52,638 nt of DNA from Desulfobacteraceae bacterium (GTDB lineage Bacteria; Desulfobacterota; Desulfobacteria; Desulfobacterales; JACKCP01): the NCBI GenBank assembly GCA_050253255.1, contig JBFWJK010000003.1:1-52638 (forward strand). Reading direction: 5' to 3'. The position numbers and the translations under genes were made by a program. Under the pieces are notes generated by a model that saw nothing but the letters and a program-made list of their open reading frames with translations, made no database searches and was not told the DNA's origin. Each line of letters opens with the position of its first letter. Position 1 is the stretch's first letter. Of this stretch, positions 29,445 through 49,929 are shown in pieces.

Positions 29445-32400
29445 GATTAAATTCCTAATAGGTACTGTGAAAACGAATAATTATAAAACAAAAAACAAAT
29501 TGTAAAAAAAGTTTCAATTCCTTATAGGTACTGTGAAAACTTCCCATAAGCCTGTCAAGGTTCAGAGAACCCCAAGTTTCAATTCCTTATAGGTACTGTG
29601 AAAACCAAAAGCAACGCACTTGCACCCACTTTTTATTTTTCGTTTCAATTCCTTATAGGTACTGTGAAAACCTCTTTTTCCTGCCTGAGCGTCGGGATTT
29701 GAGCTCATGTTTCAATTCCTTATAGGTACTGTGAAAACCAATAAAGTTGAAAATACCTGAGTATATTTTTTGAGGTTTCAATTCCTTATAGGTACTGTGA
29801 AAACAGCTGTGTTTGTACCTGTGTGTTTAAATGAATTATGCGTTTCAATTCCTTATAGGTACTGTGAAAACGCAGTAAACCAACTGATTTTAATGACCTT
29901 GCAACATGTTTCAATTCCTTATAGGTACTGTGAAAACTAAAATCCTTTTGAAAGAGCTGCCTGGTATTCTTAACGTTTCAATTCCTTATAGGTACTGTGA
30001 AAACCAATATCAGCTTTGTAAATATTTTCAATGATTCCGCTGTTTCAATTCCTTGTAGGTACTGTAAAAACAAGATGGACAATGGAGTAATTCTGTTACG
30101 CCATATCGTTTCAATTCCTTGTAGGTACTGTAAAAACCTTAAAAGTGTCCACAGAATGTCCACAGGATTTTTTAGTTTCAATTCCTTGTAGGTACTGTAA
30201 AAACCGACTTTATTACCCGCACCATCTAGAACAAATGATGTTTCAATTCCTTGTAGGTACTGTAAAAACAGATTTATATAAAATAATAACTAAATACTCT
30301 AGTGTATTGTTTCAATTCCTTGTAGGTACTGTAAAAACAGATGATAGAAGAGTATGAAGAACAACCAGACCCAGGTTTCAATTCCTTGTAGGTACTGTAA
30401 AAACGCTTGCTCTGCATTTGCTGCAATAGTTGTCTGTGCCGTTTCAATTCCTTGTAGGTACTGTAAAAACGACACCTGGTAGAACCAAGGGCCATGGTGG
30501 TTGATATGTTTCAATTCCTTGTAGGTACTGTAAAAACTAGGGATTGTTATTCGAGCATGGTATTTAGCAAAAAAGTTTCAATTCCTTGTAGGTACTGTAA
30601 AAACCCACACCAGAGTGTAGAGAAAAAGAAAACTTTAAACTAGTTTCAATTCCTTGTAGGTACTGTAAAAACGAAAATATCTGACACTGTTTTTGATGCG
30701 GCAATATTCAGTTTCAATTCCTTGTAGGTACTGTAAAAACCAGGACTTGAAGTCCAGTCATTTGGATTAAATTCTGTGTTTCAATTCCTTGTAGGTACTG
30801 TAAAAACTGATCTAAGCATAATAAGAGCTGTAAGGTTTCTATAGTTTCAATTCCTTGTAGGTACTGTAAAAACGGCAAGAGAAAAAATTCTCTTAGGTCA
30901 GGAATATAGTATGTTTCAATTCCTTGTAGGTACTGTAAAAACTAAAATCATCGAGCTTTCATGGGAAATGATTGTAAAGTTTCAATTCCTTGTAGGTACT
31001 GTAAAAACCTGACGAGATTGCTGCTGGATACGGGTATACAGCTGGGTTTCAATTCCTTGTAGGTACTGTAAAAACCCCCAACCTCTTATTTCATACCAAA
31101 AACCATCATCTGTTTCAATTCCTTGTAGGTACTGTAAAAACATGGTATAAATGGAAATGTTAACAATATTATAAATCTGTTTCAATTCCTTGTAGGTACT
31201 GTAAAAACAATTTTTTAAAAACTATTTCTTTAAGCTGACTTTCTGGTTTCAATTCCTTGTAGGTACTGTAAAAACCTGATACGCATCTGTCTTATTCTGA
31301 TATAACACACAGGTTTCAATTCCTTGTAGGTACTGTAAAAACGAAGCGGAGTCTGCTGGAGCGGCTCCGTTTTCTTTGTTTCAATTCCTTGTAGGTACTG
31401 TAAAAACCAAAGAAGATGCCTTACATCTTTTAGGTAAGAAAGTGTTTCAATTCCTTGTAGGTACTGTAAAAACACTTGGAGCGGTTCAGCTATATCGTTA
31501 CTAGGTACGTTTCAATTCCTTGTAGGTACTGTAAAAACTAAATATAATCCAGACCTCAGAGGCCTCTTTTCTGAGTTTCAATTCCTTGTAGGTACTGTAA
31601 AAACTAAAAAAAGTTCGTCCCCATATTTCTTAATTCTACGCAGTTTCAATTCCTTGTAGGTACTGTAAAAACGCAGCCTCTAAAACGGCAGTCCATAGTT
31701 TTTTCTCTGTTTCAATTCCTTGTAGGTACTGTAAAAACTTAAATGACTTTTAACTTGTCTTATCATTAATTTTTGTTTCAATTCCTTGTAGGTACTGTAA
31801 AAACTTAGGCATATTGCAAACCTGATGAAAGATTTATTGTGGTTTCAATTCCTTGTAGGTACTGTAAAAACCTATTGTTGGTTATGATCTACATGACAAA
31901 ATATCAGTGTTTCAATTCCTTGTAGGTACTGTAAAAACACGACTATCAATCAGGCCGGCAACAATACGATCACATGTTTCAATTCCTTGTAGGTACTGTA
32001 AAAACACTTTTTCCCGTCTGTACATCAGATTATTAATCTTCTGTTTCAATTCCTTGTAGGTACTGTAAAAACGCCATCATACGTGGTATAAACCAAGCTG
32101 GTAGTAATTGTTTCAATTCCTTGTAGGTACTGTAAAAACTGCACCCTCAAGGCTACACCAAAAAGTTTTAATCCCGTTTCAATTCCTTGTAGGTACTGTA
32201 AAAACCAATCAGGATAGGAAGGTTTAAGTTAAAAACTTCTTGGTTTCAATTCCTTGTAGGTACTGTAAAAACAATATCTGTATTATTTAGCCAAGATTAA
32301 CCAACTCTGTTTCAATTCCTTGTAGGTACTGTAAAAACGACCAAACCTGTTTAAGCAAAAGTTTAATGATTCCGGTGTTTCAATTCCTTGTAGGTACTGT

Positions 32401-34129
32401 AAAAACTTTTTCAAAAAATTAAACAGTGCCAATAAACAAAACGTTTCAATTCCTTGTAGGTACTGTAAAAACACTTGATTATATTACCAAACTTGATTTA
32501 AAGGTCGGGTTTCAATTCCTTGTAGGTACTGTAAAAACACCTTTCAGGGGATAGCAAAAGCAATGGCAACTCAAGTTTCAATTCCTTGTAGGTACTGTAA
32601 AAACCTTTTGAAACAAGGCTTATGAGCCTTCACAAAAAAGTGTTTCAATTCCTTGTAGGTACTGTAAAAACAACTTGAAAAGAGAATACTTTTCCTTGAA
32701 AGATACCTGTTTCAATTCCTTGTAGGTACTGTAAAAACCAAAATGTCTTAATGAAGGTTTTTTAACTCCTGTCTAGTTTCAATTCCTTGTAGGTACTGTA
32801 AAAACCTTATATCCACCTTGGTATTTTCATTAAAAATGAAAGTTTCAATTCCTTGTAGGTACTGTAAAAACACGGTGGCCTGTTTCAAAAAGAGGGACTT
32901 TATTTTGAGTTTCAATTCCTTGTAGGTACTGTAAAAACCTAATTAAAAAAATTAATTAAAAAAGGATTGATTAGTTTCAATTCCTTGTAGGTACTGTAAA
33001 AACCAACAATATCAGCTGCAACAGTAGCAAGGCCAGAAAGTTTCAATTCCTTGTAGGTACTGTAAAAACTTGCAGGGTGGCGAGGCAAACGTTTTTTCAA
33101 ATAAAGTTTCAATTCCTTGTAGGTACTGTAAAAACACAATCCAACAGATGTTGAAGCAAAAGACCTTGCAGAAGTTTCAATTCCTTGTAGGTACTGTAAA
33201 AACCCGATTGTATCAGTTTCAGCAAGGTTCGTTAAAGTTGTTTCAATTCCTTGTAGGTACTGTAAAAACAACACTGAACATAAAAAAACTTGGGAGGTAA
33301 AAAATCAGTTTCAATTCCTTGTAGGTACTGTAAAAACGCCATAGAAAGGTTTAATTATGAGCTTCAGAAAGCACGTTTCAATTCCTTGTAGGTACTGTAA
33401 AAACTGTTTTTGGCGAACTTGAAAAAGCGTGCTTTTCAAGGTTTCAATTCCTTGTAGGTACTGTAAAAACTTTGAGGGCCAGATGATTTCTAGGCTTGAA
33501 ACACATGTTTCAATTCCTTGTAGGTACTGTAAAAACTTGATTTTGATATTGAGGATATTGGTATATAAAAAAGTTTCAATTCCTTGTAGGTACTGTAAAA
33601 ACGGTAGTATTGTCCACGATTATGCATCGGGTAACAAGTTTCAATTCCTTGTAGGTACTGTAAAAACCAAGGAAAATCAGGAAAGTTACCGTGTGTATAA
33701 ATAGTTTCAATTCCTTGTAGGTACTGTAAAAACTATCGATTGGAAATTAGTTAAATGGAACTCTAATTAGTTTCAATTCCTTGTAGGTACTGTAAAAACA
33801 TACCAGAGTGTAGAGAAAAAGAAAACTTTGAACTAGTTTCAATTCCTTGTAGGTACTGTAAAAACCTTAAAAATCATAAGCAATAATCAAGTAAATATTG
33901 GGTTTCAATTCCTTGTAGGTACTGTAAAAACAAAGAAAAGTATCAAGCAGAGCTTGCAAGAAAAGAGGTTTCAATTCCTTGTAGGTACTGTAAAAACCAT
34001 TTTTAGTACAAACATAAACATAATTTACATCAGGTTTCAATTCCTTGTAGGTACTGTAAAAACTCGAGTTTTTGTCATTTCAAGGCTAAAAATACAACAG
34101 TTTCAATTCCTTGTAGGTACTGTAAAAAC
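29445..34129 (-). CRISPR. CRISPR array, 30-bp repeat GTTTTTACAGTACCTACAAGGAATTGAAAC (crRNA orientation), about 71 repeats and 70 spacers of about 35-39 nt
   Basis: Manual count: 62 major repeats (30042-34129), 8 variant repeats (29511-30004), 1 degenerate terminal repeat (29445-29474); the ATTGAAAC 3' handle and leader position give the orientation. Confidence 0.98.
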
Positions 34130-34262
34130 TCCAAGTTTTATAATAAAAAAACAACGGACAATCAAGGAATTCATAATAAATTGTCAAAGATCATATATAA
34201 ATATACATAAAAATCTGTCGACCCCCGGGGATTTTTGCACTACCGGAGGTCGACAGATTTTT
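34130..34262 (-). promoter_or_regulatory. CRISPR leader with GTCGACC/GGTCGAC inverted repeat
   Basis: AT-rich region between cas2 and the first repeat; AAAAATCTGTCGACC (34209-34223) / GGTCGACAGATTTTT (34248-34262); candidate promoter TTGATT-17-TATAAA at 34165-34137. Confidence 0.85.
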
Positions 34263-34527
34263 ACAGAAACTGAGTTTCGCCCTTTTTATCCACGCCGTAT
34301 ACTTTTCTTTCATAGTATTTCATATGCCTGAACTTATAGGCAACAATTGAATCATTTAAATCTTTATCAATTATTTTCTCAAGCTCAAAAATCATCTTTT
34401 CATATTTTGCTTCTGTAATTTCTCCTTCGAAAACCGAATTCTGAACCCATTTCAGATATTTTCTGCATGTCTTAAGTGCATTGCTGCATTTTTTCTGATT
34501 TACATCATAAAAAAGAATCACAAACAT
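34261..34527 (-). CDS. cas2: CRISPR-associated endonuclease Cas2
   Basis: MFVILFYDV, WVQNSVFEG; 88 aa. Confidence 0.96.
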   Translation of the reverse strand: MFVILFYDVNQKKCSNALKTCRKYLKWVQNSVFEGEITEAKYEKMIFELEKIIDKDLNDSIVAYKFRHMKYYERKVYGVDKKGETQFL

Positions 34528-34528
34528 T

Positions 34529-35524
34529 TTACCAGTCCATAATAAAAGGTTTATATACTTCTTCTTCCATCAAGTGCTTTTCAAGCTTATAAAGTTCCAG
34601 TCTGATAAGCCGCCTGTAGCTTGTATGCTTTTTTGTTCCGGAATGTTTAATTGTCTGCTTCAGTCTTTCTTCAAGATTCTGAATAAATTTCTTTTTCCCG
34701 GATTCTTTTAAAATGATTCCATCAAAATCCTTATGAAAGTCATTTTCAGTTATTATTTTCTTATTAAGAACGGAAAAGATTACCCTGTCTCCAACAACAA
34801 TCTTAAAAATCTCTGCTATATCAAGATTTAAAGAAAACCGTCTGAAATTTGTGGTATGAAGATAGCCGATTCTAGGGTCAAGATGAGTTTTATAAATCTC
34901 ACTTAAAACCTGAGTATAAATAACCGAGTTGCCAAACGAAATAAGAGTGTTGATATAATCTTTTGGAGGCCGTCTTGTTCTTGCTTCAAACCTGAACTCG
35001 GGATTGTCGATTATATGACTGAAAGCTCTGTAATAAGTCTGTTTTATCTGGCCTTCAAAGGCCATTGCCTGCTCTATAGTATCCTGAGATAAAGCCTTTT
35101 CTTTCAAAGACTCAATCTGCTCTATGAATATTTCAAGGTTCTTTTCACGCCTGTTGTAATATTTCAAAACCTTAAGTGTATTTTTAGCAGCACCGTCAAT
35201 TATTTTAGAAGCAATAAAAAACCGCTTTTTCTCATCAATATAATGCTCAGACTGCTTTAATATCATAAATCCGAAATTATAATGCTCACGGGGATAAAAA
35301 CTACCTGCATAATATCCGTAATAATTGAAATAATGCAAAATTATCTCTTTCTGGGATAGAAAATTCAAAATCTTTGCATTAAGATCAATTTCACCAAAGG
35401 CATAAATCTCTTTTACATTTTCAACGGGAATGAACTTTTTGTTTCCGTCTTCGGTTTCAAAGAAAAGGGTGTTTTCCTTTCTTTTGAGTCTTCCGTTGGA
35501 GAAAATGTAGATGGATTCTTTCAT
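34529..35524 (-). CDS. cas1: Type I-B Cas1
   Basis: RKENTLFF, FEG, RTRRPP.D.INTLISFGNS, GYLH, LDIAEIFK. Confidence 0.97.
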   Translation of the reverse strand: MKESIYIFSNGRLKRKENTLFFETEDGNKKFIPVENVKEIYAFGEIDLNAKILNFLSQKEIILHYFNYYGYYAGSFYPREHYNFGFMILKQSEHYIDEKKRFFIASKIIDGAAKNTLKVLKYYNRREKNLEIFIEQIESLKEKALSQDTIEQAMAFEGQIKQTYYRAFSHIIDNPEFRFEARTRRPPKDYINTLISFGNSVIYTQVLSEIYKTHLDPRIGYLHTTNFRRFSLNLDIAEIFKIVVGDRVIFSVLNKKIITENDFHKDFDGIILKESGKKKFIQNLEERLKQTIKHSGTKKHTSYRRLIRLELYKLEKHLMEEEVYKPFIMDW

Positions 35525-36684
35525 TAAGCCTCACTCCAAAGACCATACCCCACAGCTGTTTTAGCTCCCAGGCCATGTTCTGACAGACTTTCACTTAAAT
35601 ATTTTTTTGACTTTTCTAATAAATTTTCATCTTTTGATCCCAACAAAAATTTAAACTTAGTGTTTTTTATCGTTAAAAATATAATTGGATTTGGGTTCTG
35701 GTCATCTGTAGGATTTTTATCTTTACTGTAATAATCTGGATAATGAACATTCATTATATCAGGCTCAATATTAGGAGGCTCCATTGGAAATGAATCAAAA
35801 AAAATAACACTGCCTTTTTTATTTTGTGAGCCGAATATATTCTGATAATTTTCTATAATTTCAATCATTTCTTTTTTTATATGAGATTTTTCATTATAAA
35901 AATGGTTGTAAATTTCTTTAGAAGGTGCATTTGAAAATTTACTTTTAAAAGACTCAAATTTTTTTTCTTCATCATTTTTTTTATTTTGATCTTTTTTATC
36001 TTTAAAAGTAAAATTTTCCAGAACTTTTTCGAAAATACTAATTTCTGGCCACTTACAATTTGTTTTTTCAAATTCAGACAAAATAAAATAATGTCTTGTA
36101 ATACCTTTGATTGCGCTCCCTGGAATGTATGGAATTCCATAGATATGATGAAGAGTAATTGAAGTTTCATAAACCGAAGGATCACCAATTCCGACTACCA
36201 TTCGCCAGTCTGGTTTCATTTTCAACTCTTTAACTCTTAAATTCATGGACTTTATTTTTCTTGTATAATCAGTATCGAAAACAGAAAAATCAAAAGCCCA
36301 GGAGTCAGCACAAATATTATAGATAATTTTTCCTTTGGAAGTTTTAAAAAAGAAAAAATCTTTCCCATCAAAAAGAGAAAATTTACTCAATTTTAATAAA
36401 AAATTATCAACACAACCGTCATTTGCAAGAAAAGCCCTATATGTATCTTTAAAAGGAACTAAAGGACGTATAATTTTTATATTTTTAGCTTCTTCTTTTT
36501 GAGTTTTTCGATTTTTATTCATATCAAACTCAACAAGCTCATTTTTTAATGGAATTAATTTTTGATCTCTCTTATTTTTAGATAAACTTTCTTCTTTAAA
36601 ATATAAATCTTTGCCTTTATTTCTTTTTATGTATCCAAACTTTTTGTCTTCTTTATAAACATTTACTTTACCAACCTCACTCAT
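35524..36684 (-). CDS. cmr6: Type III-B Cmr6 with N-terminal cold-shock domain
   Basis: RAMP motifs HHIYGIPYIPGSAIKG, DIMNVHYPDYY, GLGAKTAVGYG; N-terminal GKV..Y..DKKFGYI...KDLYF. ATG 36684 preferred over 36699. Confidence 0.9.
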   Translation of the reverse strand: MSEVGKVNVYKEDKKFGYIKRNKGKDLYFKEESLSKNKRDQKLIPLKNELVEFDMNKNRKTQKEEAKNIKIIRPLVPFKDTYRAFLANDGCVDNFLLKLSKFSLFDGKDFFFFKTSKGKIIYNICADSWAFDFSVFDTDYTRKIKSMNLRVKELKMKPDWRMVVGIGDPSVYETSITLHHIYGIPYIPGSAIKGITRHYFILSEFEKTNCKWPEISIFEKVLENFTFKDKKDQNKKNDEEKKFESFKSKFSNAPSKEIYNHFYNEKSHIKKEMIEIIENYQNIFGSQNKKGSVIFFDSFPMEPPNIEPDIMNVHYPDYYSKDKNPTDDQNPNPIIFLTIKNTKFKFLLGSKDENLLEKSKKYLSESLSEHGLGAKTAVGYGLWSEA

Positions 36685-37108
36685 TATCATCCCCTTCAAT
36701 CAGTCCCTCTGCAAAACGTCTTAGCCAACTAAAAAAAGCTAAAACTTCAATAGTAATCATTCTATATTTTGAGGAATCTTCAGAAATTATATAATTATTT
36801 AATTTTTCAAATGAATTAATAATCTGATCTGAGGGTAAAAGTCCTTTTTCATCAGCTTTTAACCAATCTAATATTTGTTCCCCTATAAATTCATAGGTTC
36901 CTCCTTTTGAAAGCATAAAAGCAAAGGTAGCACCAAGACCATTTGTTTTTATAAGCATGGGTATTTTTTTTGTATAAGCTTTATATTCCTTCGATTTATC
37001 ATTTTTATCTTTATATTCTTTTTTTTTATCCAGAAGGCTTCCTTCTTTGGCACATTCATATGCAAATTTTGCTCTGCCCTGCTCTAATCCTGAAATTTTA
37101 CTTTCCAT
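36677..37108 (-). CDS. cmr5: Type III-B small subunit Cmr5
   Basis: LEQGRAKFAY, KIPMLIKTNGLGATFAF, WLRRFAEG. Confidence 0.93.
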   Translation of the reverse strand: MESKISGLEQGRAKFAYECAKEGSLLDKKKEYKDKNDKSKEYKAYTKKIPMLIKTNGLGATFAFMLSKGGTYEFIGEQILDWLKADEKGLLPSDQIINSFEKLNNYIISEDSSKYRMITIEVLAFFSWLRRFAEGLIEGDDNE

Positions 37109-38138
37109 TTTGTGCTGCCTCCATTTTTTTTATTTCAACAACACCCTTTCCGATTGTTGCATTTCCTCCAATCTGCATAACCTCAGGAACACCATTTTCA
37201 AAAAAATCCATAACAAGTTTTTCTTCATTTTGACTTTCGAAGATACCTTTATCTTTTTTATTAAAAATTGGAGTTGTTAAAGCTAAAGAATATAAAATTG
37301 TTTCAGAAGGAAGATATTCTTCTGTAAATAATGCTCCGCCTTTAACAGTTCCTGTCTCGGGATCAATGCATGTTCGAGTTACTACTTCTGTGGAAAGGTT
37401 TACAAAATCTCTAAAGTCTTCATCTGATAAAACGACAAGTTTTTCTACAACAGAATTAAGACCCAATTTATCCGTAATGAATTGAGCCAAATTTTTGGTA
37501 TTTTCATCACTCTTTACCGAAAAACTATATTCTTCCAAAACGACAATATTTTTATCTTTAATTGTCAAAGGACTTGCATTAGTATCAAAAACTGAATTTG
37601 GTGAAGGAACAGTTTCGATATTATATTTCTGCATATCTATACTTTCCATTTTTATACAAATACCTAAATCTTTATAAAATCTTTCAATCACCGAAGGACA
37701 GGTTATATAAGCAAAAACCCCTTTCATTGATTTTACAGGGAATAAAAGAATCTTTGCATCTGTAAAGCCTAAAGCACCAGCATGTGCATCACCGTCTTTT
37801 GGTCCAAAAGACAAAGAGATTGCTTGATCAAATTTAATTAACTCTTTTCCATTTTTATCTTTTTTTACTTCTTGGGAATTATCCTTCCTGACCATCCATT
37901 TTTCTTCTAAACCTTTAAAATTATCTTTAAGCTTATCTGAATTAACAATATTATCAGATAATTTTAACCCTTCAAAAACTTCTCTTATGCTGCCTTTTAA
38001 ACCTGATGCCTCAATTTTTGGAAAGCCTGTATGCCTTTCCCTTTGGATTGGCATATCAACAATTCCAAGATCCTGTCCGCTGCCTGCATGTAATGGTGTT
38101 ATTACTTTTATAAAAAAAGGTTTAGCTAATTTAAACAT
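37098..38138 (-). CDS. cmr4: Type III-B Cmr4 (RNA-cleaving Cas7 subunit)
   Basis: TPLHAGSG...VDMPIQRE (catalytic Asp present), SGLKG, QIGGNATIGKG. Confidence 0.95.
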   Translation of the reverse strand: MFKLAKPFFIKVITPLHAGSGQDLGIVDMPIQRERHTGFPKIEASGLKGSIREVFEGLKLSDNIVNSDKLKDNFKGLEEKWMVRKDNSQEVKKDKNGKELIKFDQAISLSFGPKDGDAHAGALGFTDAKILLFPVKSMKGVFAYITCPSVIERFYKDLGICIKMESIDMQKYNIETVPSPNSVFDTNASPLTIKDKNIVVLEEYSFSVKSDENTKNLAQFITDKLGLNSVVEKLVVLSDEDFRDFVNLSTEVVTRTCIDPETGTVKGGALFTEEYLPSETILYSLALTTPIFNKKDKGIFESQNEEKLVMDFFENGVPEVMQIGGNATIGKGVVEIKKMEAAQNGK

Positions 38139-38148
38139 TACTTATCTC

Positions 38149-39387
38149 CTAATTATCAAGATAGTGATTTAATCTTTCCTCAATTTTATCAATTCCCCAG
38201 ACTTCAAGAGATGCTCTTTTTGCCGCAAGAACAGATTTTTTTATATTCTTATAGCACCCCTCTTTAAGAAGCTTATTGAACTCGCCAACATCATTAATTT
38301 CTTCTTGAGTCAAAGGTGTTATCAAAATAGGCAAACCATAAGCCCCGCTAACGGCATAGGTGGAATATTTAGTACTTTTTGCAATATCACCAGACATAGC
38401 ACCGCTTTTACACTCAAAAATCATAAATTTCCCATTTCTTGTAAGCAGAGCTATATCAAATTCATCAATTGCAGATTCCGTAACTTTTTCATGCTTATCA
38501 TTAAAATTTATTTTCTCTGAGAAAGATAAATCTGCAATTTTATTTTTCGCAACATCATATATTTTATAGCCAGCTAGTTTTTCTAAAATATAACCAAGAG
38601 GATATTCTTTATTAAAATCATTTTCAAAATTATCATAAGTAAGACCATTCATTTTTTCAAATATGGTTTCCTTAACCGCATTTTTATTATTTTTTATATT
38701 AAAATCAACCACTTGCAATCTAAAAAACCTGTCATTTATGAATTCTTCTAATAATTTAATATAGAATTTTTTTTCTCTTATTTTCGTTTCATTGCTTTCA
38801 AGGTTTTCAAGCAATTTTCTTTGGGATGTTTTTGTATCCTTTATTTCGAAGCCCATCAACTCTAATGCAGTTTCTATCTTCAGCAGTTCCTTAGTGGTAT
38901 AATTTTCAACAATATCAAAATTTTCAAAATTATTTCTTTGAAGTACTATTTTATTTTTATTCCCTTCAAGATAACAAACAACATCTTCAGGACCAGATAT
39001 CTTATTAATGGCGAAAGCAACAGATCTCTGCCCCCCAGTCACATTCCAGAAAACCTTCTGGCCTTCAAAATTTTCAGCAAGACAATCTTCCATCTTACTT
39101 ACATCACTTATTAATTCTTGTTCAAAACTCAGAGTATATTTTTCACCTAAAGGAGCTGATATAATTTTTTCTTTGATTAGAATTTTTTGTAAATTCTCAT
39201 CCCATTTTTTATTCTTAGAATATTTACTGCCAGATGTTGTGATATTGTAAATTTCCTTAAATTTATAAATGCCTAAAGGTATATAATTTACCATCTGATT
39301 TAAAGTTGAAACCATTACATAAATATAATCTGCAAAAATATCTTCTTGTACTATGCTATTTTTGTTCGACCTTATTTTACTCAACAT
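38149..39387 (-). CDS. CARF plus PD-(D/E)xK nuclease, Card1/Can2 (DUF1887)-like ancillary effector
   Basis: N-terminal CARF-like strand 'VMVSTLNQMVNYIP' and 'WNVTGGQR'; C-terminal 'GYILE...EFDIA...IFECKSG'. Confidence 0.75.
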   Translation of the reverse strand: MLSKIRSNKNSIVQEDIFADYIYVMVSTLNQMVNYIPLGIYKFKEIYNITTSGSKYSKNKKWDENLQKILIKEKIISAPLGEKYTLSFEQELISDVSKMEDCLAENFEGQKVFWNVTGGQRSVAFAINKISGPEDVVCYLEGNKNKIVLQRNNFENFDIVENYTTKELLKIETALELMGFEIKDTKTSQRKLLENLESNETKIREKKFYIKLLEEFINDRFFRLQVVDFNIKNNKNAVKETIFEKMNGLTYDNFENDFNKEYPLGYILEKLAGYKIYDVAKNKIADLSFSEKINFNDKHEKVTESAIDEFDIALLTRNGKFMIFECKSGAMSGDIAKSTKYSTYAVSGAYGLPILITPLTQEEINDVGEFNKLLKEGCYKNIKKSVLAAKRASLEVWGIDKIEERLNHYLDN

Positions 39388-39396
39388 AAAAATCTC

Positions 39397-40413
39397 CTAT
39401 ACATTAAGAACTTCATATTTTCCAAACCCCTTAAAAGCATCTTCACTATTTATTGATGTACTCTCATCAAAATATTTTGTTTCAAATATATAAACACTTC
39501 CTCCAGGAACATAACGTTTCATTGGTTTCGGCATACCTTTACCATCATTTGCAGCCATATCAAATCCACCGATATTCAGAGGTTTTCCTATACTTGCACA
39601 TAAAGGCTTAACATTAGTTTCCCAGCCATTACAAAAATAACATGGCGTCTTAAAAACTATTTTGAAATATTCTTCATCCTTTATAGACTTTAAAATATTC
39701 TTTTTGTAGTCACTGACTCGAACTAAAGTTTTTGGTTTTTCTATCTTTTTGAAATATGCGGTTTTTCCTTCACCACCGAGTTTTAATAGACCATCCGATG
39801 AAAAAGTGGCATCAGAGAGTTGATACTCCACTAAAAAAGACCAATCTTGTTTAAATTGAGTTAAGTCTATTCTGTATAAATATTTTTCTTCAGAAGCTTT
39901 TGTAAGATATGTTCTTTTTATTCCAATCTTACTGTCAGGGACAAAAATTTTTTCACTCCGGTAGACAATCATACTCCCTGAATAATTTCTTGAATAATGA
40001 TTAAATAATGAAGAAACGTCTATAAAAGCATTTTCCAGAGGTTTAACTTTTTTATTTTTTACCATAGCCAAAAAAGGCATTGGATAATTAGACACGAAAT
40101 CAACTTCTTCATACTCCGGCAAATAAAATTTCCCGTAATCATCAGTGAAAATATCAAGGGGTGCGGGAATAAGAACAGTCTGATTTTTTTCATTATAAAG
40201 ATATATATTTTCTATTTTTAATCTTTCGGCCTCTTTAGAAGGATTCTTTCTGCATATTTTTTTTTCAGAAAATAAAACGGAAAACATAGCTCCCCAGATA
40301 ACAGAAGGATTTGGTAAAAAGCTGCTGTCTGTCCAGCTGTTTTCACCTGCTGTAAAAGGTTTGCCGCCTCTGAAAAATAAAGTATCTTTTGGTTTTATGG
40401 TCATAAAAGCCAT
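39397..40413 (-). CDS. cmr3: Type III-B Cmr3 (Cas5 family)
   Basis: P.DTLFFRGGKPF, P.PSVIWGA, LGGEGK, GGFDM, VPGGSVY, GFG. Confidence 0.93.
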   Translation of the reverse strand: MAFMTIKPKDTLFFRGGKPFTAGENSWTDSSFLPNPSVIWGAMFSVLFSEKKICRKNPSKEAERLKIENIYLYNEKNQTVLIPAPLDIFTDDYGKFYLPEYEEVDFVSNYPMPFLAMVKNKKVKPLENAFIDVSSLFNHYSRNYSGSMIVYRSEKIFVPDSKIGIKRTYLTKASEEKYLYRIDLTQFKQDWSFLVEYQLSDATFSSDGLLKLGGEGKTAYFKKIEKPKTLVRVSDYKKNILKSIKDEEYFKIVFKTPCYFCNGWETNVKPLCASIGKPLNIGGFDMAANDGKGMPKPMKRYVPGGSVYIFETKYFDESTSINSEDAFKGFGKYEVLNV

Positions 40414-42017
40414 TACATCACCTTCCTTAACTGCTCCAGGGTTTTAAGATAACCAATAAAATTTTCAAAATCTATTCTGTTTGCGTTGGAGCCTTCTTCT
40501 ATTGTCTGGTCTCTTAAAAAATTAATAATTCCATCAACCCGCTTATCCTTAACATCCTTATTTTCTCTTTTTAAAAGGCGGATTATCTCTGTTTCCAGCA
40601 TGGATTTATTAAGTAAATAATTGTCGTAGGAGTTTACGTCTTTAAGAAAAGGAAATTGTAAGCCTAGTTTAAAATGAAGATTATTACCGGTCTTCTCCTT
40701 CCATAACTTCTCAAGCAGCATAAAATTTTCATGCCTGCAATAACATTTAGAATGAATGGAACTATTGCTTAAAACAATAACTCCCATGCCGTTTTTATCA
40801 TCAAAGGCATTTTTTGTTTCTTCCATGAGTTCTCTGGATAAATCCAGGACTTTGTGAAGTGGGGATTTGTAATGAGAAATTACTATTGACATAGAATAGG
40901 TTAATTTTTTTAAAATGCTGTGTTCTTCAAATTTAAAAATATCTTTAATTTCTGAGACGACTTCAAATAAATATTCTAAATTAACAAAACCTAAAAAATC
41001 ATCGCCTCCGGCATAAACAGTTTGTCCATAACCTTTATCATCAATATCAATAATACTTTTTATTTTTGATGATAACTTATTAAGCGTTTTAGATATGTCT
41101 ACCTGAAAATCTTTGAGTTCTTTCCCGTCTGTGCCATATTTACCAGACAACCATTTGCCCATATCATCTATATCGATCTTGAGAAGAGCATAGTATTTTT
41201 TCTGTTTTTTGACATCCAAGCTATGTTGCTTTATAAAATCTTTGACAAAATCTAATTCTGGATTGAATAACATTTCTTCATCAAAAAAATTTATTTCTGT
41301 TCTTAATTTAACCAGCTCATCTTTTTTGATATTTTTCAACCAATCCATTAAACAGATCTCAGCCAGTGACGGCAAAGGATAGTCTAACACCCTTTTTGTA
41401 TAACAAACACCACAAAGCCCTTCATTTTCTTCAATAAAGTCTTCTCGAATTAAATTATTTTTCCACTTTTGCTTTCCCTTTTTTCCGCAAAACAAAGCAT
41501 TTCTAACGCCGCACAAAGAACACTTACGCCCAGGTTTCTCTTCAAACGGAATAAATCTTTTCACATTTTTAATGGCAGAATGTAGTTCAGATATTTTTTT
41601 ATAGGACTCTTGGTAATTATTTTTTTCATAGGGATAAAAAAGCCAGTTTACTTCTAAAAAATCATTTATTTGAGCATTAAAACATTCAGTTAAATCGGAA
41701 GGTAATTTAATATTTAGCCGAGCTTTGTCTTCAAATTTTTCCTTAACAGCCTCTTCAATACACTCACCTATTTTTGCTAATTCATTTTCCCCTTTTTCCA
41801 CATAAATATCACCAAGAAATATATTCGGCATAAATTCGGAATTTTCTGCTGGTAAGATAACCTTCCCACCATATCCCTCAAATTTTTCAATAGCTTTTCT
41901 GCAAAGTTCTGAAAGCACATTACTTCCTGCATACAAATCTTTTGTCTTTCGAGCCTGAGAGATAAAACTCTGAACAGGAGAAATAGACAAAATAAAAAGA
42001 AACTGATTATTATTCAT
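40413..42017 (-). CDS. cas10: Cas10/Cmr2 lacking the HD nuclease domain, cyclase motif intact
   Basis: Starts at 'ISPVQSFISQARKTKDLYAGS'; Zn finger CSLC/CGVC; DIDDMGK; YAGGDDF; 534 aa. Confidence 0.93.
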   Translation of the reverse strand: MNNNQFLFILSISPVQSFISQARKTKDLYAGSNVLSELCRKAIEKFEGYGGKVILPAENSEFMPNIFLGDIYVEKGENELAKIGECIEEAVKEKFEDKARLNIKLPSDLTECFNAQINDFLEVNWLFYPYEKNNYQESYKKISELHSAIKNVKRFIPFEEKPGRKCSLCGVRNALFCGKKGKQKWKNNLIREDFIEENEGLCGVCYTKRVLDYPLPSLAEICLMDWLKNIKKDELVKLRTEINFFDEEMLFNPELDFVKDFIKQHSLDVKKQKKYYALLKIDIDDMGKWLSGKYGTDGKELKDFQVDISKTLNKLSSKIKSIIDIDDKGYGQTVYAGGDDFLGFVNLEYLFEVVSEIKDIFKFEEHSILKKLTYSMSIVISHYKSPLHKVLDLSRELMEETKNAFDDKNGMGVIVLSNSSIHSKCYCRHENFMLLEKLWKEKTGNNLHFKLGLQFPFLKDVNSYDNYLLNKSMLETEIIRLLKRENKDVKDKRVDGIINFLRDQTIEEGSNANRIDFENFIGYLKTLEQLRKVM

Positions 42018-43054
42018 ATTTTTATCTCCAAAAACTCAATATTTTTGCCTTTTAAATAATCAAAAAATTCATTAATAATTTTTTCATCTGGATATGCCTG
42101 ATTATTTTTTTTATTTTTATCCATGAATTTATATTTGTCTGGTAACAAATCCCCAGCCAACCAAATTATTAAAGGAAAATATTTTTCTTCTGCAGTTTTT
42201 ATGACTTTAAAAATTAAAGGAGATGACCTGCGTTCAAGTAGATCAAAACCATCTTTATTATTTTCTTTTTTTTTTCCAGCAACCATTGTCATGCCGTTTT
42301 TATGTGAAATAGGAAATCCAAAGTTTGGTGTTTCATCAACCCTTCCTTTATGGTCTCCTCTAAAAGTAGAAAAAGGTTCACCTATAGTTTCTAATGCCCT
42401 CTTCCAATCTTTTTCAGGGTTAAAGACATAGACTTTTGCACCTTTGAGTGTTGAAAAGCTTTTGCTAGATTTTTCTATTAAAGGCCTAACGTTATCTTTA
42501 ATAAACCTCTTAAGCCCTTCTTTAGAATTAATTAAAGGATCAAAAAAATTATTCTCTAACCCTTCCTCAATTAAAAAATTTCCTCCCCCTCTTCTTGAAC
42601 GCGAGCCAATGCCTCCAAAAAGAGAAAATACAAGAAAAACTTTTTTAACTTTCTCAATATATTTATTATCATTTGATTTGATTTTTATTTCAAACCCTTG
42701 TCCTGGTTTAATACAATTTTTGTCCTGATTCCCTGCCATAAGCCTTGAATAAAAAAGATAACCAAGTCCTGGATAGTTATGTTTATTTATTAATTTTTTA
42801 GTAATATCTTGTTCAATATTGTTTCCATTAACTTGTATAATTACTTTACTTCGTCCTTCTTTTTCCCCGGTTCCACCAAAAAGTTCAGCTTCATTTTCTT
42901 TCATTTTTGTTACAGCTGAATCAGGATTCATGGCTCTCCACCAAAACCGAAGTCCTCCTTTAATAGATGGGGGTCTTATTTCAGGCTCTGAATCATCAGC
43001 ACCATAACAAAACATTGGAGTAATAGTTCTGCATTTTAATGTTATCTCTTCCAT
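42014..43054 (-). CDS. cmr1: Type III-B Cmr1
   Basis: ITPMF.YGAD, RPPSIKG.LRFWWRA, GGIGSRSRRGGG, RRSSPL. Confidence 0.92.
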   Translation of the reverse strand: MEEITLKCRTITPMFCYGADDSEPEIRPPSIKGGLRFWWRAMNPDSAVTKMKENEAELFGGTGEKEGRSKVIIQVNGNNIEQDITKKLINKHNYPGLGYLFYSRLMAGNQDKNCIKPGQGFEIKIKSNDNKYIEKVKKVFLVFSLFGGIGSRSRRGGGNFLIEEGLENNFFDPLINSKEGLKRFIKDNVRPLIEKSSKSFSTLKGAKVYVFNPEKDWKRALETIGEPFSTFRGDHKGRVDETPNFGFPISHKNGMTMVAGKKKENNKDGFDLLERRSSPLIFKVIKTAEEKYFPLIIWLAGDLLPDKYKFMDKNKKNNQAYPDEKIINEFFDYLKGKNIEFLEIKI

Positions 43055-43083
43055 ATATTTTCCTTAATCAATAAATCAGTTTC

Positions 43084-43581
43084 TCAACTCCAGCAAAACT
43101 CAAGATAAGAACAGCTTGCACAAGGTCTTATCCTCTTTTTTTCAGGAGGTTTTTCCATATTTATTATATCTTCTATTTCTTTAATCAGATTTTCAATATA
43201 GTCTTCTTTTTCTTTGGTAAGTTCAAGAGGAATTACTTTTTTCTCTTTTGGAACCCTTATTTCCCCCAGGGCTTCTTTTAACTCATTTTTATAGGAATAA
43301 AGATAAAACAAGAGCTGAGCTTCGGTTGCATCAAGCTTTTTGGAGCTTTTCTTTGTCTCGGCAATTATAAGAGTGCTGTTTTCGTTTCTTATGAAATCTA
43401 TTTTATTATCTCCGAAAATTATCTCTTTCTTATTTCGCTCATAAGACTTTTCTGAAATAAACCGGCCTATTTCAAGGAACTCGTTTTCCTGATCTCCGGC
43501 TATATTTCGTGACATAAGCCAGGCTTGTCTTTTGCAGACCATAAAAGCGTATACAACTGATCCTGTGATTTTAAACTCCAT
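43084..43581 (-). CDS. cas4: Cas4 exonuclease
   Basis: CKRQAWL, KID, ETKKS, QL.FYL, C..CSY.EFCW Fe-S Cys. Confidence 0.95.
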   Translation of the reverse strand: MEFKITGSVVYAFMVCKRQAWLMSRNIAGDQENEFLEIGRFISEKSYERNKKEIIFGDNKIDFIRNENSTLIIAETKKSSKKLDATEAQLLFYLYSYKNELKEALGEIRVPKEKKVIPLELTKEKEDYIENLIKEIEDIINMEKPPEKKRIRPCASCSYLEFCWS

Positions 43582-43601
43582 CTTTTATTTCCTGACTTTT
43601 G

Positions 43602-45920
43602 TTAAATAAATTCAACATCTGTAATATCTTCGTATTCGTCTGTAAGCCCGATTTCGCTGTCATATCTGCATTTAACTACATAAAAAGACTGCTTTTTAAT
43701 ATTTTCTCCATCAATATATTTTACTTCTATCTGTCCCTGGGAAAGATATTTCATGAAAAGGTTTCTGCTTATACTTACAAGCAGCTTATCTGCCTCTATA
43801 AAATCAAAATTTTCAATCAAGTCTTTATATCTTGAGTAAAAAATTGCCGGCAGAGCCTTAATATTTGTAAACTTATCATAAAAGGCTTCCTCTGTTGCTG
43901 TGCAGTCGGCATATGGCTGAATAGCTTCAAGTGAGGATTTAAAAAGATTTACAGTATTTTCAAATTCGTCTTTTTCTTTTTCTGTCCAGCCGGGATAAAC
44001 ATTATCAAGCATAACTCCTGTTTTTTCTTCTTCTAGTACATCTGTTTTCTCAAGCTCTTTTATTGTTCTTAAAACAATTTCTTCAGGATAAATAAAATGA
44101 TCGTTTTCTCCTGGCTGTCTGCATACATAAACAGTCGACAGCTCTTTTTGAGCCTTTCTGTTTATTCTTCCAAAACGCTGTAAAAGTGCATCAAGAGGAG
44201 CCGGTTCTGTAATAAGAACATCAAAATCTATATCAAGGCTTACTTCTATGGCCTGGGTTCCAACCAGAATTTTTGTCTCTTCATCAAAAATCTTACGTTC
44301 TTTTCCGTTCCTGTCATGCTGATTGAACCGGCCGTGCAGGAGTACAATCTCAGCATCAAAACAGATTTCCATATCTTTTATTTGTAAAAAAACTTCCTGT
44401 GCATTTTTTACAGTATTGCAGGCAATTATTATCCTTTTGCCTTCTTCAATAAAATCTTCAATCATATCAAGGGAATCAAATATACTGGCTTCAAAAATTT
44501 TTACTCTGTGTCTTATTAAATTTTTCATAAGAGTTTTATCAGGATTAATTACTTTTTCTGAACCTATGGCCTTTTGCAGTTCTTTAAGCATGAATGTGGG
44601 AAGGGTTGCTGTCATTATCATAATTTCGCAAAAAAGCTTTTCTTTTAAAAATTTGATCATCACAATAATCTGAGCAAAGGTTATTACATCGTATGCATGA
44701 ATTTCATCAAAAACCAGTTTTGCTCCACCAAGAAAAGTGAGCCCCTTTTCAAAACCTTTTACTCCGTAAAGATATTTTAAAACCTGAAAAGGTGTACATA
44801 TGCTTACCGGAGCTATCAAAGATTTATACTGAGCAGCAATCTTTTTTATTTTCTCATTTCGTTCTATATTTTGTGACTTATCAAAACCTTCCTCAAAAAA
44901 ATCTGAAATATAATGAGAAATATTTCCATGCTGAAGACCAATAACTTCGGAAGGATTTGAACCCGTGTTATCCATATTTTGGGATAGTCTTTTATGCATG
45001 GCGTTAATGGATGCGGTGTATGGAAGTATATAAAAAAATCTTCCCTGCCCTAAATCGAGCTGCTTTTTTAGCCAGCCTATTGCAGATTCTGTTTTGCCCG
45101 AACCTGTGGGTGCAATGAGAAGACATGAACCTGATGTTTCAAAACATGTTTTCTGATGTGAATAAAAATCCTTATTTTCATTTTTGAGAGCTATACCCAT
45201 TTGATTTAAAAATTCAAAATTATGGGAATTAAGAATTTTTATTTCTTTTATTCCGCCTGAACCCAGATGATCGCAAATTTTCAGGCTGCCCCACATTAAA
45301 AGATTCTGAAAATATTCTTTACCTATGTATTTAAAATCCAATAAAGGTTTTGCAATCTCTTCCACAGGATGCTTAAGATTTTCAAGACTTACAGGTGTTT
45401 TTAAAAGGCGAATATCAACATTATTTTCTTTTGCAGATTTTTCAAAATTTTTCAATAAATCAACAAGATCTTTTGTAGGAAGCCTGAATTTTATATTTTT
45501 ATTAAAATCCTTTGGATGAAATTTAAGATTTTCTTTCCATTTTGAATTAAACTCAAAATCAAGATCATCTTTGCTGATCATTTTCTTAACAAGTTCTGGC
45601 AAGACTTTATGATGGGTTAACACAGAGAGTTTAATAAGCTTTTTATTATCTGTATCTATCTTGTCTATAAATGGTATGGAATATATTTCATGTCTTTGAT
45701 TTTCCCATACGTTATCTTCATTATTCAGCATTTTCTGAAATTCAGTATGAATCTTACCAAAGTCATGGAAATAGACAGAGCAGAAAAGCAGATCCCAGAA
45801 AGATTCAAGGCAGGTAATATTATCAAGTACCGGCAAAGCTTTTTTAAGCTCCAGGTAAACAGCAATACAATCATCAATATGCTCTTCAAGTGTTGTTCCG
45901 TCAGATTTTGCAAGTACCAT
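43602..45920 (-). CDS. cas3: Cas3 HD nuclease-helicase
   Basis: LAKS..TL.EH, HDFGK, APTGSGKT, DEIH, MTAT, QRFGRINR; start moved to ATG 45920 (MVLAKS). Confidence 0.96.
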   Translation of the reverse strand: MVLAKSDGTTLEEHIDDCIAVYLELKKALPVLDNITCLESFWDLLFCSVYFHDFGKIHTEFQKMLNNEDNVWENQRHEIYSIPFIDKIDTDNKKLIKLSVLTHHKVLPELVKKMISKDDLDFEFNSKWKENLKFHPKDFNKNIKFRLPTKDLVDLLKNFEKSAKENNVDIRLLKTPVSLENLKHPVEEIAKPLLDFKYIGKEYFQNLLMWGSLKICDHLGSGGIKEIKILNSHNFEFLNQMGIALKNENKDFYSHQKTCFETSGSCLLIAPTGSGKTESAIGWLKKQLDLGQGRFFYILPYTASINAMHKRLSQNMDNTGSNPSEVIGLQHGNISHYISDFFEEGFDKSQNIERNEKIKKIAAQYKSLIAPVSICTPFQVLKYLYGVKGFEKGLTFLGGAKLVFDEIHAYDVITFAQIIVMIKFLKEKLFCEIMIMTATLPTFMLKELQKAIGSEKVINPDKTLMKNLIRHRVKIFEASIFDSLDMIEDFIEEGKRIIIACNTVKNAQEVFLQIKDMEICFDAEIVLLHGRFNQHDRNGKERKIFDEETKILVGTQAIEVSLDIDFDVLITEPAPLDALLQRFGRINRKAQKELSTVYVCRQPGENDHFIYPEEIVLRTIKELEKTDVLEEEKTGVMLDNVYPGWTEKEKDEFENTVNLFKSSLEAIQPYADCTATEEAFYDKFTNIKALPAIFYSRYKDLIENFDFIEADKLLVSISRNLFMKYLSQGQIEVKYIDGENIKKQSFYVVKCRYDSEIGLTDEYEDITDVEFI

Positions 45921-45932
45921 AAAAACCTTTTC

Positions 45933-45967
45933 AATACTGCGGTCTGATATAAACAAACCGCAGTATT
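45933..45967. promoter_or_regulatory. Intergenic stem-loop between cas5 and cas3
   Basis: AATACTGCGGT-N13-ACCGCAGTATT perfect 11-bp stem. Confidence 0.6.
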
Positions 45968-45970
45968 ATT

Positions 45971-46636
45971 TTATAATTCCTGCCAGTAAACATCCCAGTC
46001 AATTTTCAGCCTGTCTTCTTTATCAGAAAACCCTTTTGAAAAGACTTCTGCTCCAGACTGCTTATAATCCGAACTCAAAACATAATACGGCTGAGTACCT
46101 ATGTTTCTTCTTGGTATAGTATTGGAAAAATATTTTGGGAGCGCCTGAACTGCTCCTGGCATCAAACCAAGTTTAAACGGAATTATTGTTCCTTTTAAAT
46201 TTGTAAGCTTTTCTTTTTCATCTGCTTCAAACTCTTTTATTCCATCCACGCTCGCAAGATCATTTAAACGTCCAAGCAGCAAAGGGAACTTAGGTTTTTC
46301 AAAATAAGAACAGATTTTTTTGCTGTCTGTATAAAGAAAGAGCTCTGCGAATGAAAAGAATTCCCTTTGAATAACATTGGAGTTAATTCCAGAAAGAGAA
46401 TTTTTCATCTGGTAAATTTTTTCTATATCAACATTTTTAGAGTCTGCTCTGAAAACAAAACCGATTTTTTCATTTTCAGGTTTAAAAGAATCTCCTTTGG
46501 CAGCAGCAATAAGTCCATTTACGGTTGAAAACGGAGGAGCATCCAAAGTAGGCTGAAAACCGCTTATCATGTTGGGATACCTGAATGATGCAGTCCAGCT
46601 GGATAAGTGAATTCTGTAAACTTTCATTTTAATCAT
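45971..46636 (-). CDS. cas5: Type I-B Cas5
   Basis: WTASFRYP...PPFSTV.GLIAAA, LLLGR..DLA. Confidence 0.92.
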   Translation of the reverse strand: MIKMKVYRIHLSSWTASFRYPNMISGFQPTLDAPPFSTVNGLIAAAKGDSFKPENEKIGFVFRADSKNVDIEKIYQMKNSLSGINSNVIQREFFSFAELFLYTDSKKICSYFEKPKFPLLLGRLNDLASVDGIKEFEADEKEKLTNLKGTIIPFKLGLMPGAVQALPKYFSNTIPRRNIGTQPYYVLSSDYKQSGAEVFSKGFSDKEDRLKIDWDVYWQEL

Positions 46637-47678: not shown

Positions 47679-47690
47679 TGATCATCTCCT

Positions 47691-48053
47691 TTATATTTCC
47701 GATAATTCTTTTTCATCTGTTTCTTCTAAAGGAATCTCCTCAACTTCTATCCCCTTTACATTTTCTTCATGCAGCAATTCATACAAATAAATCAGAAGAA
47801 GATCCCTTACCTCTCCCCAGTACTGACCATCCGGAAAAAGGTATTCAACATAATCGCCCAATGTAATTAGCGGCCTTTCTTCACCTGCTGCATAATTTTT
47901 CTTAACAAGTGAAATTAAGACAGATCTTAACTGATAAGCTTTTCCTGCACCTTCAATCTTAGTGAGATATTTTTTGAAATTGTCTTCTTTTCTGGCAATT
48001 TCAATAATTGACTTTCCAAGTTTTTTTATTAGCTCCATCTGTTCAGGACTCAT
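47691..48053 (-). CDS. cas11: Putative internally translated Cas11 small subunit (120 aa, in frame with the cas8b C-terminus)
   Basis: Minus strand AAAGGAGGTGAGGAATATG: near-perfect Shine-Dalgarno before in-frame Met (MSPEQMELIK...). Confidence 0.75.
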   Translation of the reverse strand: MSPEQMELIKKLGKSIIEIARKEDNFKKYLTKIEGAGKAYQLRSVLISLVKKNYAAGEERPLITLGDYVEYLFPDGQYWGEVRDLLLIYLYELLHEENVKGIEVEEIPLEETDEKELSEI

Positions 48054-49085: not shown

Positions 49086-49126
49086 ATTTCCACCTTTATA
49101 TTTTAAGGCCTTATTTTGAGACAAAA

Positions 49127-49906: not shown

Positions 49907-49929
49907 GGTCTGTCAAAAACTGACAGACC
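49907..49929. promoter_or_regulatory. Palindromic operator candidate upstream of cas6
   Basis: GGTCTGTCA-N5-TGACAGACC perfect inverted repeat overlapping the WYL stop, about 43 nt before the cas6 ATG. Confidence 0.6.

Follow-up and report, generated by a model that had tools for sequence, protein, structure and literature searches.

The window analysed here, a stretch of 52,638 nucleotides (nt) from a Desulfobacteraceae bacterium (contig JBFWJK010000003.1), carries a type III-B CRISPR-Cas (Cmr) module in which the cmr6 gene encodes a fusion protein of 386 amino acids (aa) with a cold-shock domain (CSD) at its N-terminus. Positions 36460-36684 of the minus strand (225 bases) correspond to residues 1-75 of this CSD-Cmr6 protein, and their identification as its N-terminal cold-shock domain is nearly certain. 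Judged from its sequence, the protein belongs to CSD-Cmr6, a recognised and widespread Cmr6 sub-family with a member in solved Cmr complexes. As for the function, a tethered arm that binds single-stranded RNA is proposed tentatively, with a chance that we put somewhat short of even; the explanation as a whole, namely a CSD-Cmr6 of a complete III-B module together with the capture of RNA by the tethered domain, is judged to be slightly better than an even bet.

The N-terminal domain of Cmr6

The open reading frame (ORF) of the CSD-Cmr6 protein occupies 35524-36684 on the minus strand, starting with ATG at 36684, coding down to 35527 and ending with the stop codon at 35524-35526. Its translation is a single stop-free frame across the CSD and Cmr6, and three parts can be recognised, all on the minus strand. 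The cold-shock domain (residues 1-71, 36472-36684) was delimited by Pfam PF00313, the AlphaFold2 model, Foldseek and conserved aromatic residues, the N-terminal extension or linker (residues 72-155, 36220-36471) by model confidence, conserved motifs and the alignment with PDB chain 9arw_H, and the RAMP core (residues 156-386, 35527-36219) by TIGR01898, Pfam RAMPs and Foldseek. The motifs on which the original prediction was based, KFGYI, DLYF, LVEFDM and AKNIKI, are all present in the translation, at residues 15-19, 26-29, 50-55 and 66-71, respectively, in frame with the remainder of the protein.

The profile hidden Markov model check proposed in the original prediction gave a positive answer. 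When residues 1-75 were scanned alone, the Pfam family PF00313, entitled 'Cold-shock DNA-binding domain', was matched with an E-value of 4.7e-7 and 30.0 bits over profile positions 3-64 of 66 (62 positions), the gathering cut-off of the family being 27 bits. In a six-frame scan of the whole genome, the Cmr6 domain scored 28.7 bits, also above the cut-off. A single-sequence search of the PDB with the same residues gave weak matches to cold-shock proteins (Csps; best E 0.016), and a homologue search with these residues returned the query alone among 28 candidates, the word index of that search being too coarse for a divergent CSD. A profile of the CSD plus linker (A4), constructed from the window and nine named genome loci, matched free-standing cold-shock proteins of the PDB in full length with E-values of 2e-14 to 1e-12, among them 2.1e-14 for Thermotoga Csp and 2e-13 for Bacillus CspB. 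Every one of the 52 matches of this profile at E of 0.001 or less carried cold-shock or Y-box-type names or were CSD-containing chains.

The AlphaFold2 model, computed from a 42-row alignment in which one row was later found to be of the other N-terminal type described below, shows five strands (residues 2-11, 16-21, 27-30, 50-57 and 64-71) with a predicted local distance difference test score (pLDDT) of 77-93 for the block and about 90 for the strands. By Foldseek, the CSD part was aligned with the Csp of Bacillus caldolyticus (5jx4_A) at a TM-score of 0.89 (by target) and a root-mean-square deviation of 2.2. RNP1 and RNP2 of cold-shock domains are aromatic and basic motifs on strands 2 and 3, and their aromatic residues form the nucleic-acid face in free Csps. 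In the protein of the window, RNP1 reads K15-F16-G17-Y18-I19 and RNP2 reads L27-Y28-F29, and the aromatic residues of the domain, which is basic with a net charge of +7, are Y10, F16, Y18, Y28 and F29. These positions are well kept in the homologue alignment: column 10 is aromatic and column 17 is G in all 41 rows, F or Y stands at column 16 in 39 and at column 18 in 40, H, F or Y at column 28 in 40, and F at column 29 in 33. Taken together, the Pfam score of the N-terminus alone, the five-strand model, its likeness to 5jx4_A and the RNP aromatics bear out the claim of the original prediction that the N-terminus is a cold-shock domain.

Four ordinary csp genes of the same genome scored 91-102 bits against the Pfam profile, in contrast to 28.7-30 bits for the Cmr6 domain, and the latter therefore does not derive from a housekeeping csp gene captured recently; by sequence it is an old, diverged CSD. 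On another contig of the same genome (G000:C153:3003-3239), a further cold-shock domain of 33 bits was detected within a 259-aa open frame, and the genome therefore encodes another CSD fusion protein.

The remainder of the protein is a complete Cmr6, as had been predicted. The Cmr6 equivalog model TIGR01898 was matched by residues 155-382 over profile positions 2-193 of 195, with an E-value of 2.3e-53 and 181.3 bits (cut-off, 51.1 bits), and Pfam RAMPs by the core with 2.8e-15. The best Foldseek matches of this part were the Cmr6 chains 9l7c_I, 3x1l_H and 4w8v_A. The linker between the two domains carries the motifs P77, D80-T81 and N94-F95-x-L97 ('DNF.LKL'), and P77, N94, L97 and K101 are invariant in alignment A1. 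This region aligns with residues 70-156 of 9arw_H. The pLDDT of the model is 46-63 over residues 71-130 and 78-90 after residue 131.

An artefact as the origin of the fusion, either a chimera of the assembly, a separate small csp gene or a start of translation downstream of the CSD, is largely refuted, and we consider it extremely improbable. The assembly is of the metagenome type with 249 contigs, and in the scan of the whole protein the CSD reached 25.2 bits, slightly below the 27-bit cut-off. However, short contigs from an independent study span 36355-36703 with 0-1 differences, one of which crosses the cmr5/cmr6 junction, and the CSD-Cmr6 fusion is therefore not an assembly chimera. The stop-free frame also speaks against an artefact, as does the recurrence of the same architecture in dozens of homologous proteins and one solved chain. 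With respect to the start, for which the original prediction had itself considered a site downstream of the domain, the ATG at 36684 is well supported as the cmr6 start codon by comparison with homologous sequences. The start region on the minus strand (36677-36696) includes AAGGGG at 36691-36696, 6 nt ahead of the ATG (36682-36684), and the cmr6 ATG overlaps the cmr5 stop codon (TGA, 36677-36679), an overlap that suggests translational coupling from cmr5 to cmr6. The mechanical ORF list runs beyond this ATG up to a TTG at 36699. The N-termini of the homologues read M-S-E-x-G-K, as does the product of the ATG, with M in 35, S in 27, E in 31 and G5 in all of the 41 aligned rows. The plus strand of this stretch contains no ORF of at least 60 aa.

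In sludge runs X2-X5, contig pieces over cmr6 (35516-36703) were identical to the window, and those over cas1 (34500-35524) had 6-22 differences each. One contig form, placed at 80% likeness and outside the main joint table, links 35688 with 36845 by way of 12 other letters, at a depth of about 3.8 in runs X2, X3 and X5.

Exchange of the N-terminal module and the role of the domain

In a study on the Cmr complex of Thermus thermophilus (TtCmr; PMC8376896), the 3' end of the CRISPR RNA (crRNA) is capped by Cmr1 and Cmr6, in agreement with the original prediction, and is largely exposed. The same study describes that the exposed 3' seed at the Cmr1/Cmr6 end starts target binding, that target binding depends on both Cmr1 and Cmr6, and also that the crRNA length is set by a trimming step. 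From the solved homologues, the RAMP core of the protein in the window would take the usual place of Cmr6 beside Cmr1 at the crRNA 3' end. The CSD, tethered by the extension of about 80 residues, would then bind single-stranded RNA with its RNP1/RNP2 aromatic face, and may add affinity, on-rate or retention for target transcripts where guide-target pairing begins. It could also melt local RNA structure, in line with the RNA-chaperone idea of the original prediction, and a chaperone function is plausible. Binding of the target would lead to cleavage by Cmr4 and to Cas10 signalling to the CARF nuclease embedded in the operon. If so, the complex represents a natural design in which an RNA-guided machine carries an extra predicted single-strand binder beside its seed, of relevance both to the search of type III complexes for structured transcripts and to the engineering of Cmr-based RNA detection.

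The N-terminal module is, however, not constant among close relatives. The nearest relatives of the protein, P0002 and P0003, have RAMP cores 76-81% identical to that of the window, whereas the N-terminal 155-200 residues before the core are 28-33% identical. In place of the CSD, their N-terminus is formed by another domain, some 75 residues long, designated ALT. This domain was detected on 33 of the 120 best homologues (P0002, P0003, P0006 and P0007 among them) and in 12 of the 71 named-genome loci surveyed (L009, L011, L012, L016, L031, L033, L035, L038, L064, L070, L076 and L079). ALT has no Pfam match and is devoid of RNP motifs, and its median net charge is +7 as compared with +2 for the CSD. 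Its model has five strands (pLDDT 79); nothing was detected for this model by Foldseek at E of 0.001 or less, and in the VIA-align search the highest Z was a middling 6.0, numerous OB and cold-shock domains scoring Z 4.5-5.5. When the CSD and ALT profiles were compared by hhalign, a local probability of 81% was obtained over 38 columns, a weak link. Because of the five-strand model, the VIA-align matches to OB and cold-shock domains and the local alignment of the two profiles, ALT is suggested to be an OB-like barrel, possibly a very diverged CSD.

The tree of these proteins was calculated with 108 rows on the region that begins 95 residues ahead of the TLHH motif, 12 of the 120 homologues being dropped for lack of a landmark motif. 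The N-terminal labels of the 108 rows (CSD, 40; ALT, 32; none, 30; other, 6) require 26 changes on the tree, and the starred branches force at least 15 for the CSD label. Exclusion of the linker gave 28 changes, or 14 for CSD versus ALT alone (72 rows). In an approximately unbiased (AU) test with 26 rows, the best tree keeping the CSD rows together was 810 log-likelihood units worse (p-AU 2e-58); since these rows were chosen after the first tree was seen, the test is post hoc. The swapped stretch includes the linker, with the breakpoint at the start of the RAMP core. From these sequence comparisons, an exchange of the N-terminal module between near-identical RAMP cores is well supported. The type of N-terminus shows no link with the class of effector, CARF-RelE and CARF-PD-(D/E)xK being present in both CSD and ALT loci (five and one, respectively, in six ALT loci). 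Against the Cmr1 tree (13 rows), the N-terminal type required 3 changes, and 53-66 of 500 shuffles were equally low.

Several observations, together with the weak whole-protein Pfam match noted above, weigh against the proposed explanation. The domain has V at column 9, where 34 of the 41 homologues have F, and among the RNA runs looked through, none contains the stretch. With 32 ALT and 30 domain-free proteins among the 108 homologues, the CSD is dispensable in this Cmr6 clade. Moreover, the N-terminal module differs within sister pairs whose cores are 73-94% identical: the identities of N-terminus and core are 29% and 94% for P0067 and P0081, 33% and 87% for P0007 and P0009, 42% and 78% for P0005 and P0006, and 46% and 73% for P0020 and P0031.

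The exchange bears directly on what the barrel is for. An interchange of the CSD with an OB-like barrel that has neither RNP motifs nor a Pfam match, and the swapping of the linker along with it up to the start of the core, would be expected if the barrel, instead of binding RNA, served mainly for structure or for the docking of proteins in the Cmr1/Cmr6 cap, where its partner might be Cmr1, a second complex, an accessory protein or a host nuclease that trims 3' ends; the combination of CSD-Cmr6 with an unusual Cmr1-MntA fusion in the solved relatives points the same way. This role is nevertheless unlikely in our estimate. The RNP1/RNP2 aromatic positions are kept in 33-41 of the 41 homologues, both barrel types are basic, and the low model confidence of the linker is as expected of a flexible tether. 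The crRNA 3' end, exposed at the Cmr1/Cmr6 end and of a length set by the trimming described in the TtCmr study, offers another ligand: a tethered single-strand binder is well placed to hold this end, either for protection from trimming or for fixing the guide length or the stoichiometry of the complex. The evidence here does not tell guide RNA from target RNA, and this role is rated somewhat lower than docking. Close relatives devoid of an N-terminal domain have the same locus type, and such a role is therefore not essential for crRNA maturation in this clade.

Capture of target RNA thus remains our preferred role for the CSD. For the exchange itself, the N-terminal 150-200 residues of Cmr6 could be regarded as a recombining cassette under adaptive exchange, which would tune RNA capture at the seed end or allow escape from phage anti-CRISPRs acting as blocks there, a doubtful proposal, and the adaptive value or anti-CRISPR pressure behind it is speculation. 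No description of the module exchange was found in the literature searched, and this is the part of the finding that could repay further work.

The Cmr module and the spread of CSD-Cmr6

The Cmr module of the window is complete and lies within a type I-B locus (34261-49864), where cas4 and cas1 flank it. The operon is aligned in the order cmr1, cas10, cmr3, CARF-PD-(D/E)xK nuclease, cmr4, cmr5 and cmr6, all on the minus strand, so that cmr6 terminates the module with the five other cmr-operon subunit genes immediately upstream. The gene for Cmr1 (346 aa) is located at 42014-43054 (TIGR01894, E 4.6e-18), followed by cas10/cmr2 at 40413-42017 (TIGR02577, E 1.1e-45; Pfam Cas10-Cmr2_palm2 and Cmr2_N), cmr3 at 39397-40413 (Pfam Cas_Cmr3, E 5.3e-43), cmr4 at 37098-38138 (TIGR02580, E 2.4e-66) and cmr5 at 36677-37108 (Pfam Cas_Cmr5, E 1.1e-29). 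Between cmr3 and cmr4, inside the operon, lies the gene for a 412-aa effector with CARF and PD-(D/E)xK nuclease domains (38149-39387), which matches the PADLOC model CARF4--CARF_PDDEXK (PDLC01886) with an E-value of 2.8e-101 and, weakly, Pfam Card1_endonuc (E 0.061).

Directly downstream of cmr6 are cas1 (34529-35524; Pfam Cas_Cas1, E 5.4e-94) and cas2 (34261-34527; CRISPR_Cas2, E 1.3e-20), both on the minus strand, and beyond them a CRISPR array at 29445-34130 with 30-nt repeats at a spacing of about 66-67 nt in roughly 70 units; 64 copies were detected by the repeat search (family D1), and the last repeats are visible in the translation of the ORF at 33954-34331. Upstream of the module, the type I-B genes cas4, cas3, cas5b, cas7 (Cst2/DevR), cas8b1 and cas6 occupy 43084-49864 on the minus strand (NCBIfam TIGR00372, TIGR01587/TIGR01596, TIGR01895, TIGR02585, TIGR01908 and TIGR01877). 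With the type I-B genes upstream and cas1, cas2 and the array downstream, the Cmr module is therefore nested in the type I-B locus. The module looks functional from its gene content, with six cmr genes, the GGDD of Cas10, the CARF nuclease and a long array.

The Cmr module and the type I-B locus share a single cas6, a single adaptation module and a single array, and a similar mixture of I-B and III-B genes was seen in Loosdrechtia (L007). Within the array, the repeat variants are ...CCTTATAGGTACTGTGAAAAC from about 29576 to 30004 and then ...CCTTGTAGGTACTGTAAAAAC for the remainder, and two spacers, near 30604-30641 and 33800-33835, are near-duplicates. A 323-aa ORF (49913-50884, minus strand) adjoins cas6 and has no NCBIfam match at E of 1e-10 or less.

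The Cas10 of the window, in which GGDD is present ('AGGDDF' in the translation), is of a short form (534 aa), and its N-terminus gave no match to an HD region in the Pfam, NCBIfam and PADLOC scans. Among the seven CSD loci in which cas10 was seen, four encode a short form (535-590 aa) and three a long one (904-927 aa). These features concern another conceivable ligand of the CSD. Cold-shock domains bind single-stranded DNA as well as RNA, and binding to the single-stranded DNA of the transcription bubble could keep the complex at transcribed invader DNA. Since no HD region was matched in the Cas10 of the window, there is no obvious DNase to position, and the short Cas10 in four of the seven loci is a further point against such a role, which we consider very unlikely. 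The alternatives to RNA capture are thus ranked with docking first, the crRNA 3' end second and the DNA of the bubble last.

The survey of CSD-Cmr6 fusions that the original prediction had called for revealed a wide distribution. A total of 1292 homologues were detected at E of 0.001 or less, and of the best 120 examined, 37 (the query counted) carry both PF00313 and PF03787 in precomputed annotation. Of 340 named-genome loci with relatives, the best 80 were fetched, and 71 of the 80 have a recognisable Cmr6 ORF, 10 of these with a CSD. The CSD-Cmr6 loci are distributed over several phyla of both Bacteria and Archaea, with records in Acidulodesulfobacterium, a gammaproteobacterium, the anammox planctomycete Loosdrechtia, Methanosarcinaceae (archaea), Desulfuromonadaceae, Tepidanaerobacteraceae, Dehalococcoidia, Syntrophales and Thermosediminibacterales. 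When the profile of the CSD plus linker was searched against 1.84 billion representatives at 50% identity, Cmr6 motifs were found behind the CSD in at least 20 of the 150 listed, a lower bound because multi-CSD proteins dominated the results. In the ESM Atlas, 56% of the 130 members of the nearest cluster, which bears the name Cmr6, have a CSD. Among 41 genomes of relatives, a match to the gene was found in five, its own genome counted, and among four genomes of the same genus in one, where it was distant; such patchy occurrence is usual for CRISPR modules.

The gene context was analysed with 119 ORFs from nine of the CSD loci, L051 being excluded because a contig end truncates it. In seven loci (L001, L004, L007, L027, L032, L062 and L063), the genes are aligned in the order cmr1, cas10, cmr3, CARF gene, cmr4, cmr5 and CSD-cmr6, and L056 is truncated upstream of cmr3. 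In L055 (1-9894), which carries CARF-RelE, cmr4, cmr5 and CSD-cmr6, the five upstream ORFs gave no match to cmr1, cas10 or cmr3 at E of 1e-8 or less; this locus may have a reduced Cmr module. A CARF gene lies immediately before cmr4 in all nine CSD loci, encoding CARF-RelE in seven and CARF-PD-(D/E)xK in two, and that of L032 matches the same PADLOC model as the nuclease of the window. Over the 15 loci examined for the slot between cmr3 and cmr4, CARF-RelE was found in 12 and CARF-PD-(D/E)xK in three, two of the latter with Csx20.

Two of these loci, L062 (2436-3575; Syntrophales bin) and L027 (2443-3576; bin of a Methanosarcinaceae archaeon), have an identical layout and near-identical Cmr1 proteins, with end branches of 0.011 and 0.094, which is either a recent inter-domain transfer or an error of binning. 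L001 (1842-4521) has two cmr1-like genes, of which the first (438 aa) is a homologue of the 'Cmr1-MntA' chain 9z7q_I (E 2.8e-109); between these genes there is a 128-aa ORF that matches no PADLOC model and may encode a partner for the MntA part.

In a literature search that did not cover subscription papers and recent releases, no paper was found on CSD-Cmr6, on the PDB entries 9arw, 9z7q, 9z7v and 9z7x or on Cmr1-MntA. The string 'CSD' in PMC3150331 and PMC5965380 was rejected as a mention of cold-shock domains, as it stands there for the gene name Csd1/Csd2.

Comparison with known systems

Canonical Cmr6 proteins, such as those of Pyrococcus furiosus (4w8v), Archaeoglobus fulgidus (3x1l_H and 9l7c_I) and TtCmr, are like the protein of the window in the RAMP core and in the operon position, with E-values of 1.3e-47 to 3.4e-37 in the sequence comparison and of 3e-17 to 3e-13 in the Foldseek comparison. 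In agreement with the original prediction, they are without a cold-shock domain, and the alignments begin at query residue 132-155. The ALT-Cmr6 proteins P0002 and P0003 come from the same locus type as the window, with a CARF effector between cmr3 and cmr4.

The free-standing Csps (Bacillus CspB, 1csp; Thermotoga Csp, 1g6p; B. caldolyticus Csp, 5jx4) share with the CSD of the window the five-strand OB barrel and the RNP1- and RNP2-like aromatics, with E-values of about 1e-14 to 1e-13 against profile A4. Unlike these proteins, the domain of the window is fused and basic (+7), and the loop that joins its strands 3 and 4 (residues 31-49) is longer. The best-scoring named CSD family for residues 1-75 is the CSD effector of the retron Se72 family (NF038236; E 1.2e-10, 41.1 bits), and the PADLOC model CSD_V of the retron Se72 type was matched with 2e-11. 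Membership in this type was rejected, the score standing against a cut-off of 82 bits and the locus having no retron context; the relation is one of resemblance, both the retron effector and CSD-Cmr6 being cases of cold-shock domains recruited to defence systems.

The closest counterparts are found in the PDB entries 9arw (chain H), 9z7q, 9z7v and 9z7x, which contain a chain deposited as 'CSD domain-containing protein Cmr6'. The original prediction knew of no characterised example of the fusion, and on this point it has to be revised, as the protein of the window aligns with the solved chain from residue 1. Chain 9arw_H is the best solved relative of the protein (E 6.9e-48, aligned over query residues 1-384), the alignment by phmmer consisting of three stretches (query 1-209, 289-354 and 352-384), and the profile of the CSD plus linker matches its residues 1-156 with an E-value of 1.2e-30. 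Like the protein of the window, it is composed of a CSD, a linker with the motifs LPxDT and IDNF.L.LNK, and a RAMP core; it is a relative of moderate identity, with 376 aa as compared with 386 aa in the window. These four entries are absent from the Foldseek library, which ends at 2026-04-08, and are probably recent. For Cas10, the best PDB match is chain A of the same complex (9arw_A), the solved protein being 612 aa in length and that of the window 534 aa. The best match for Cmr1 is 9z7q_I, 'Cmr1-MntA' (E 3.2e-51), of which the Cmr1 part alone is aligned: the solved complex has a 438-aa Cmr1-MntA fusion, whereas the window encodes a plain Cmr1 of 346 aa. The present finding is thus mostly a clarifying one, in that the CSD on Cmr6 is a common and structurally studied variant of type III-B systems and not a new fusion.

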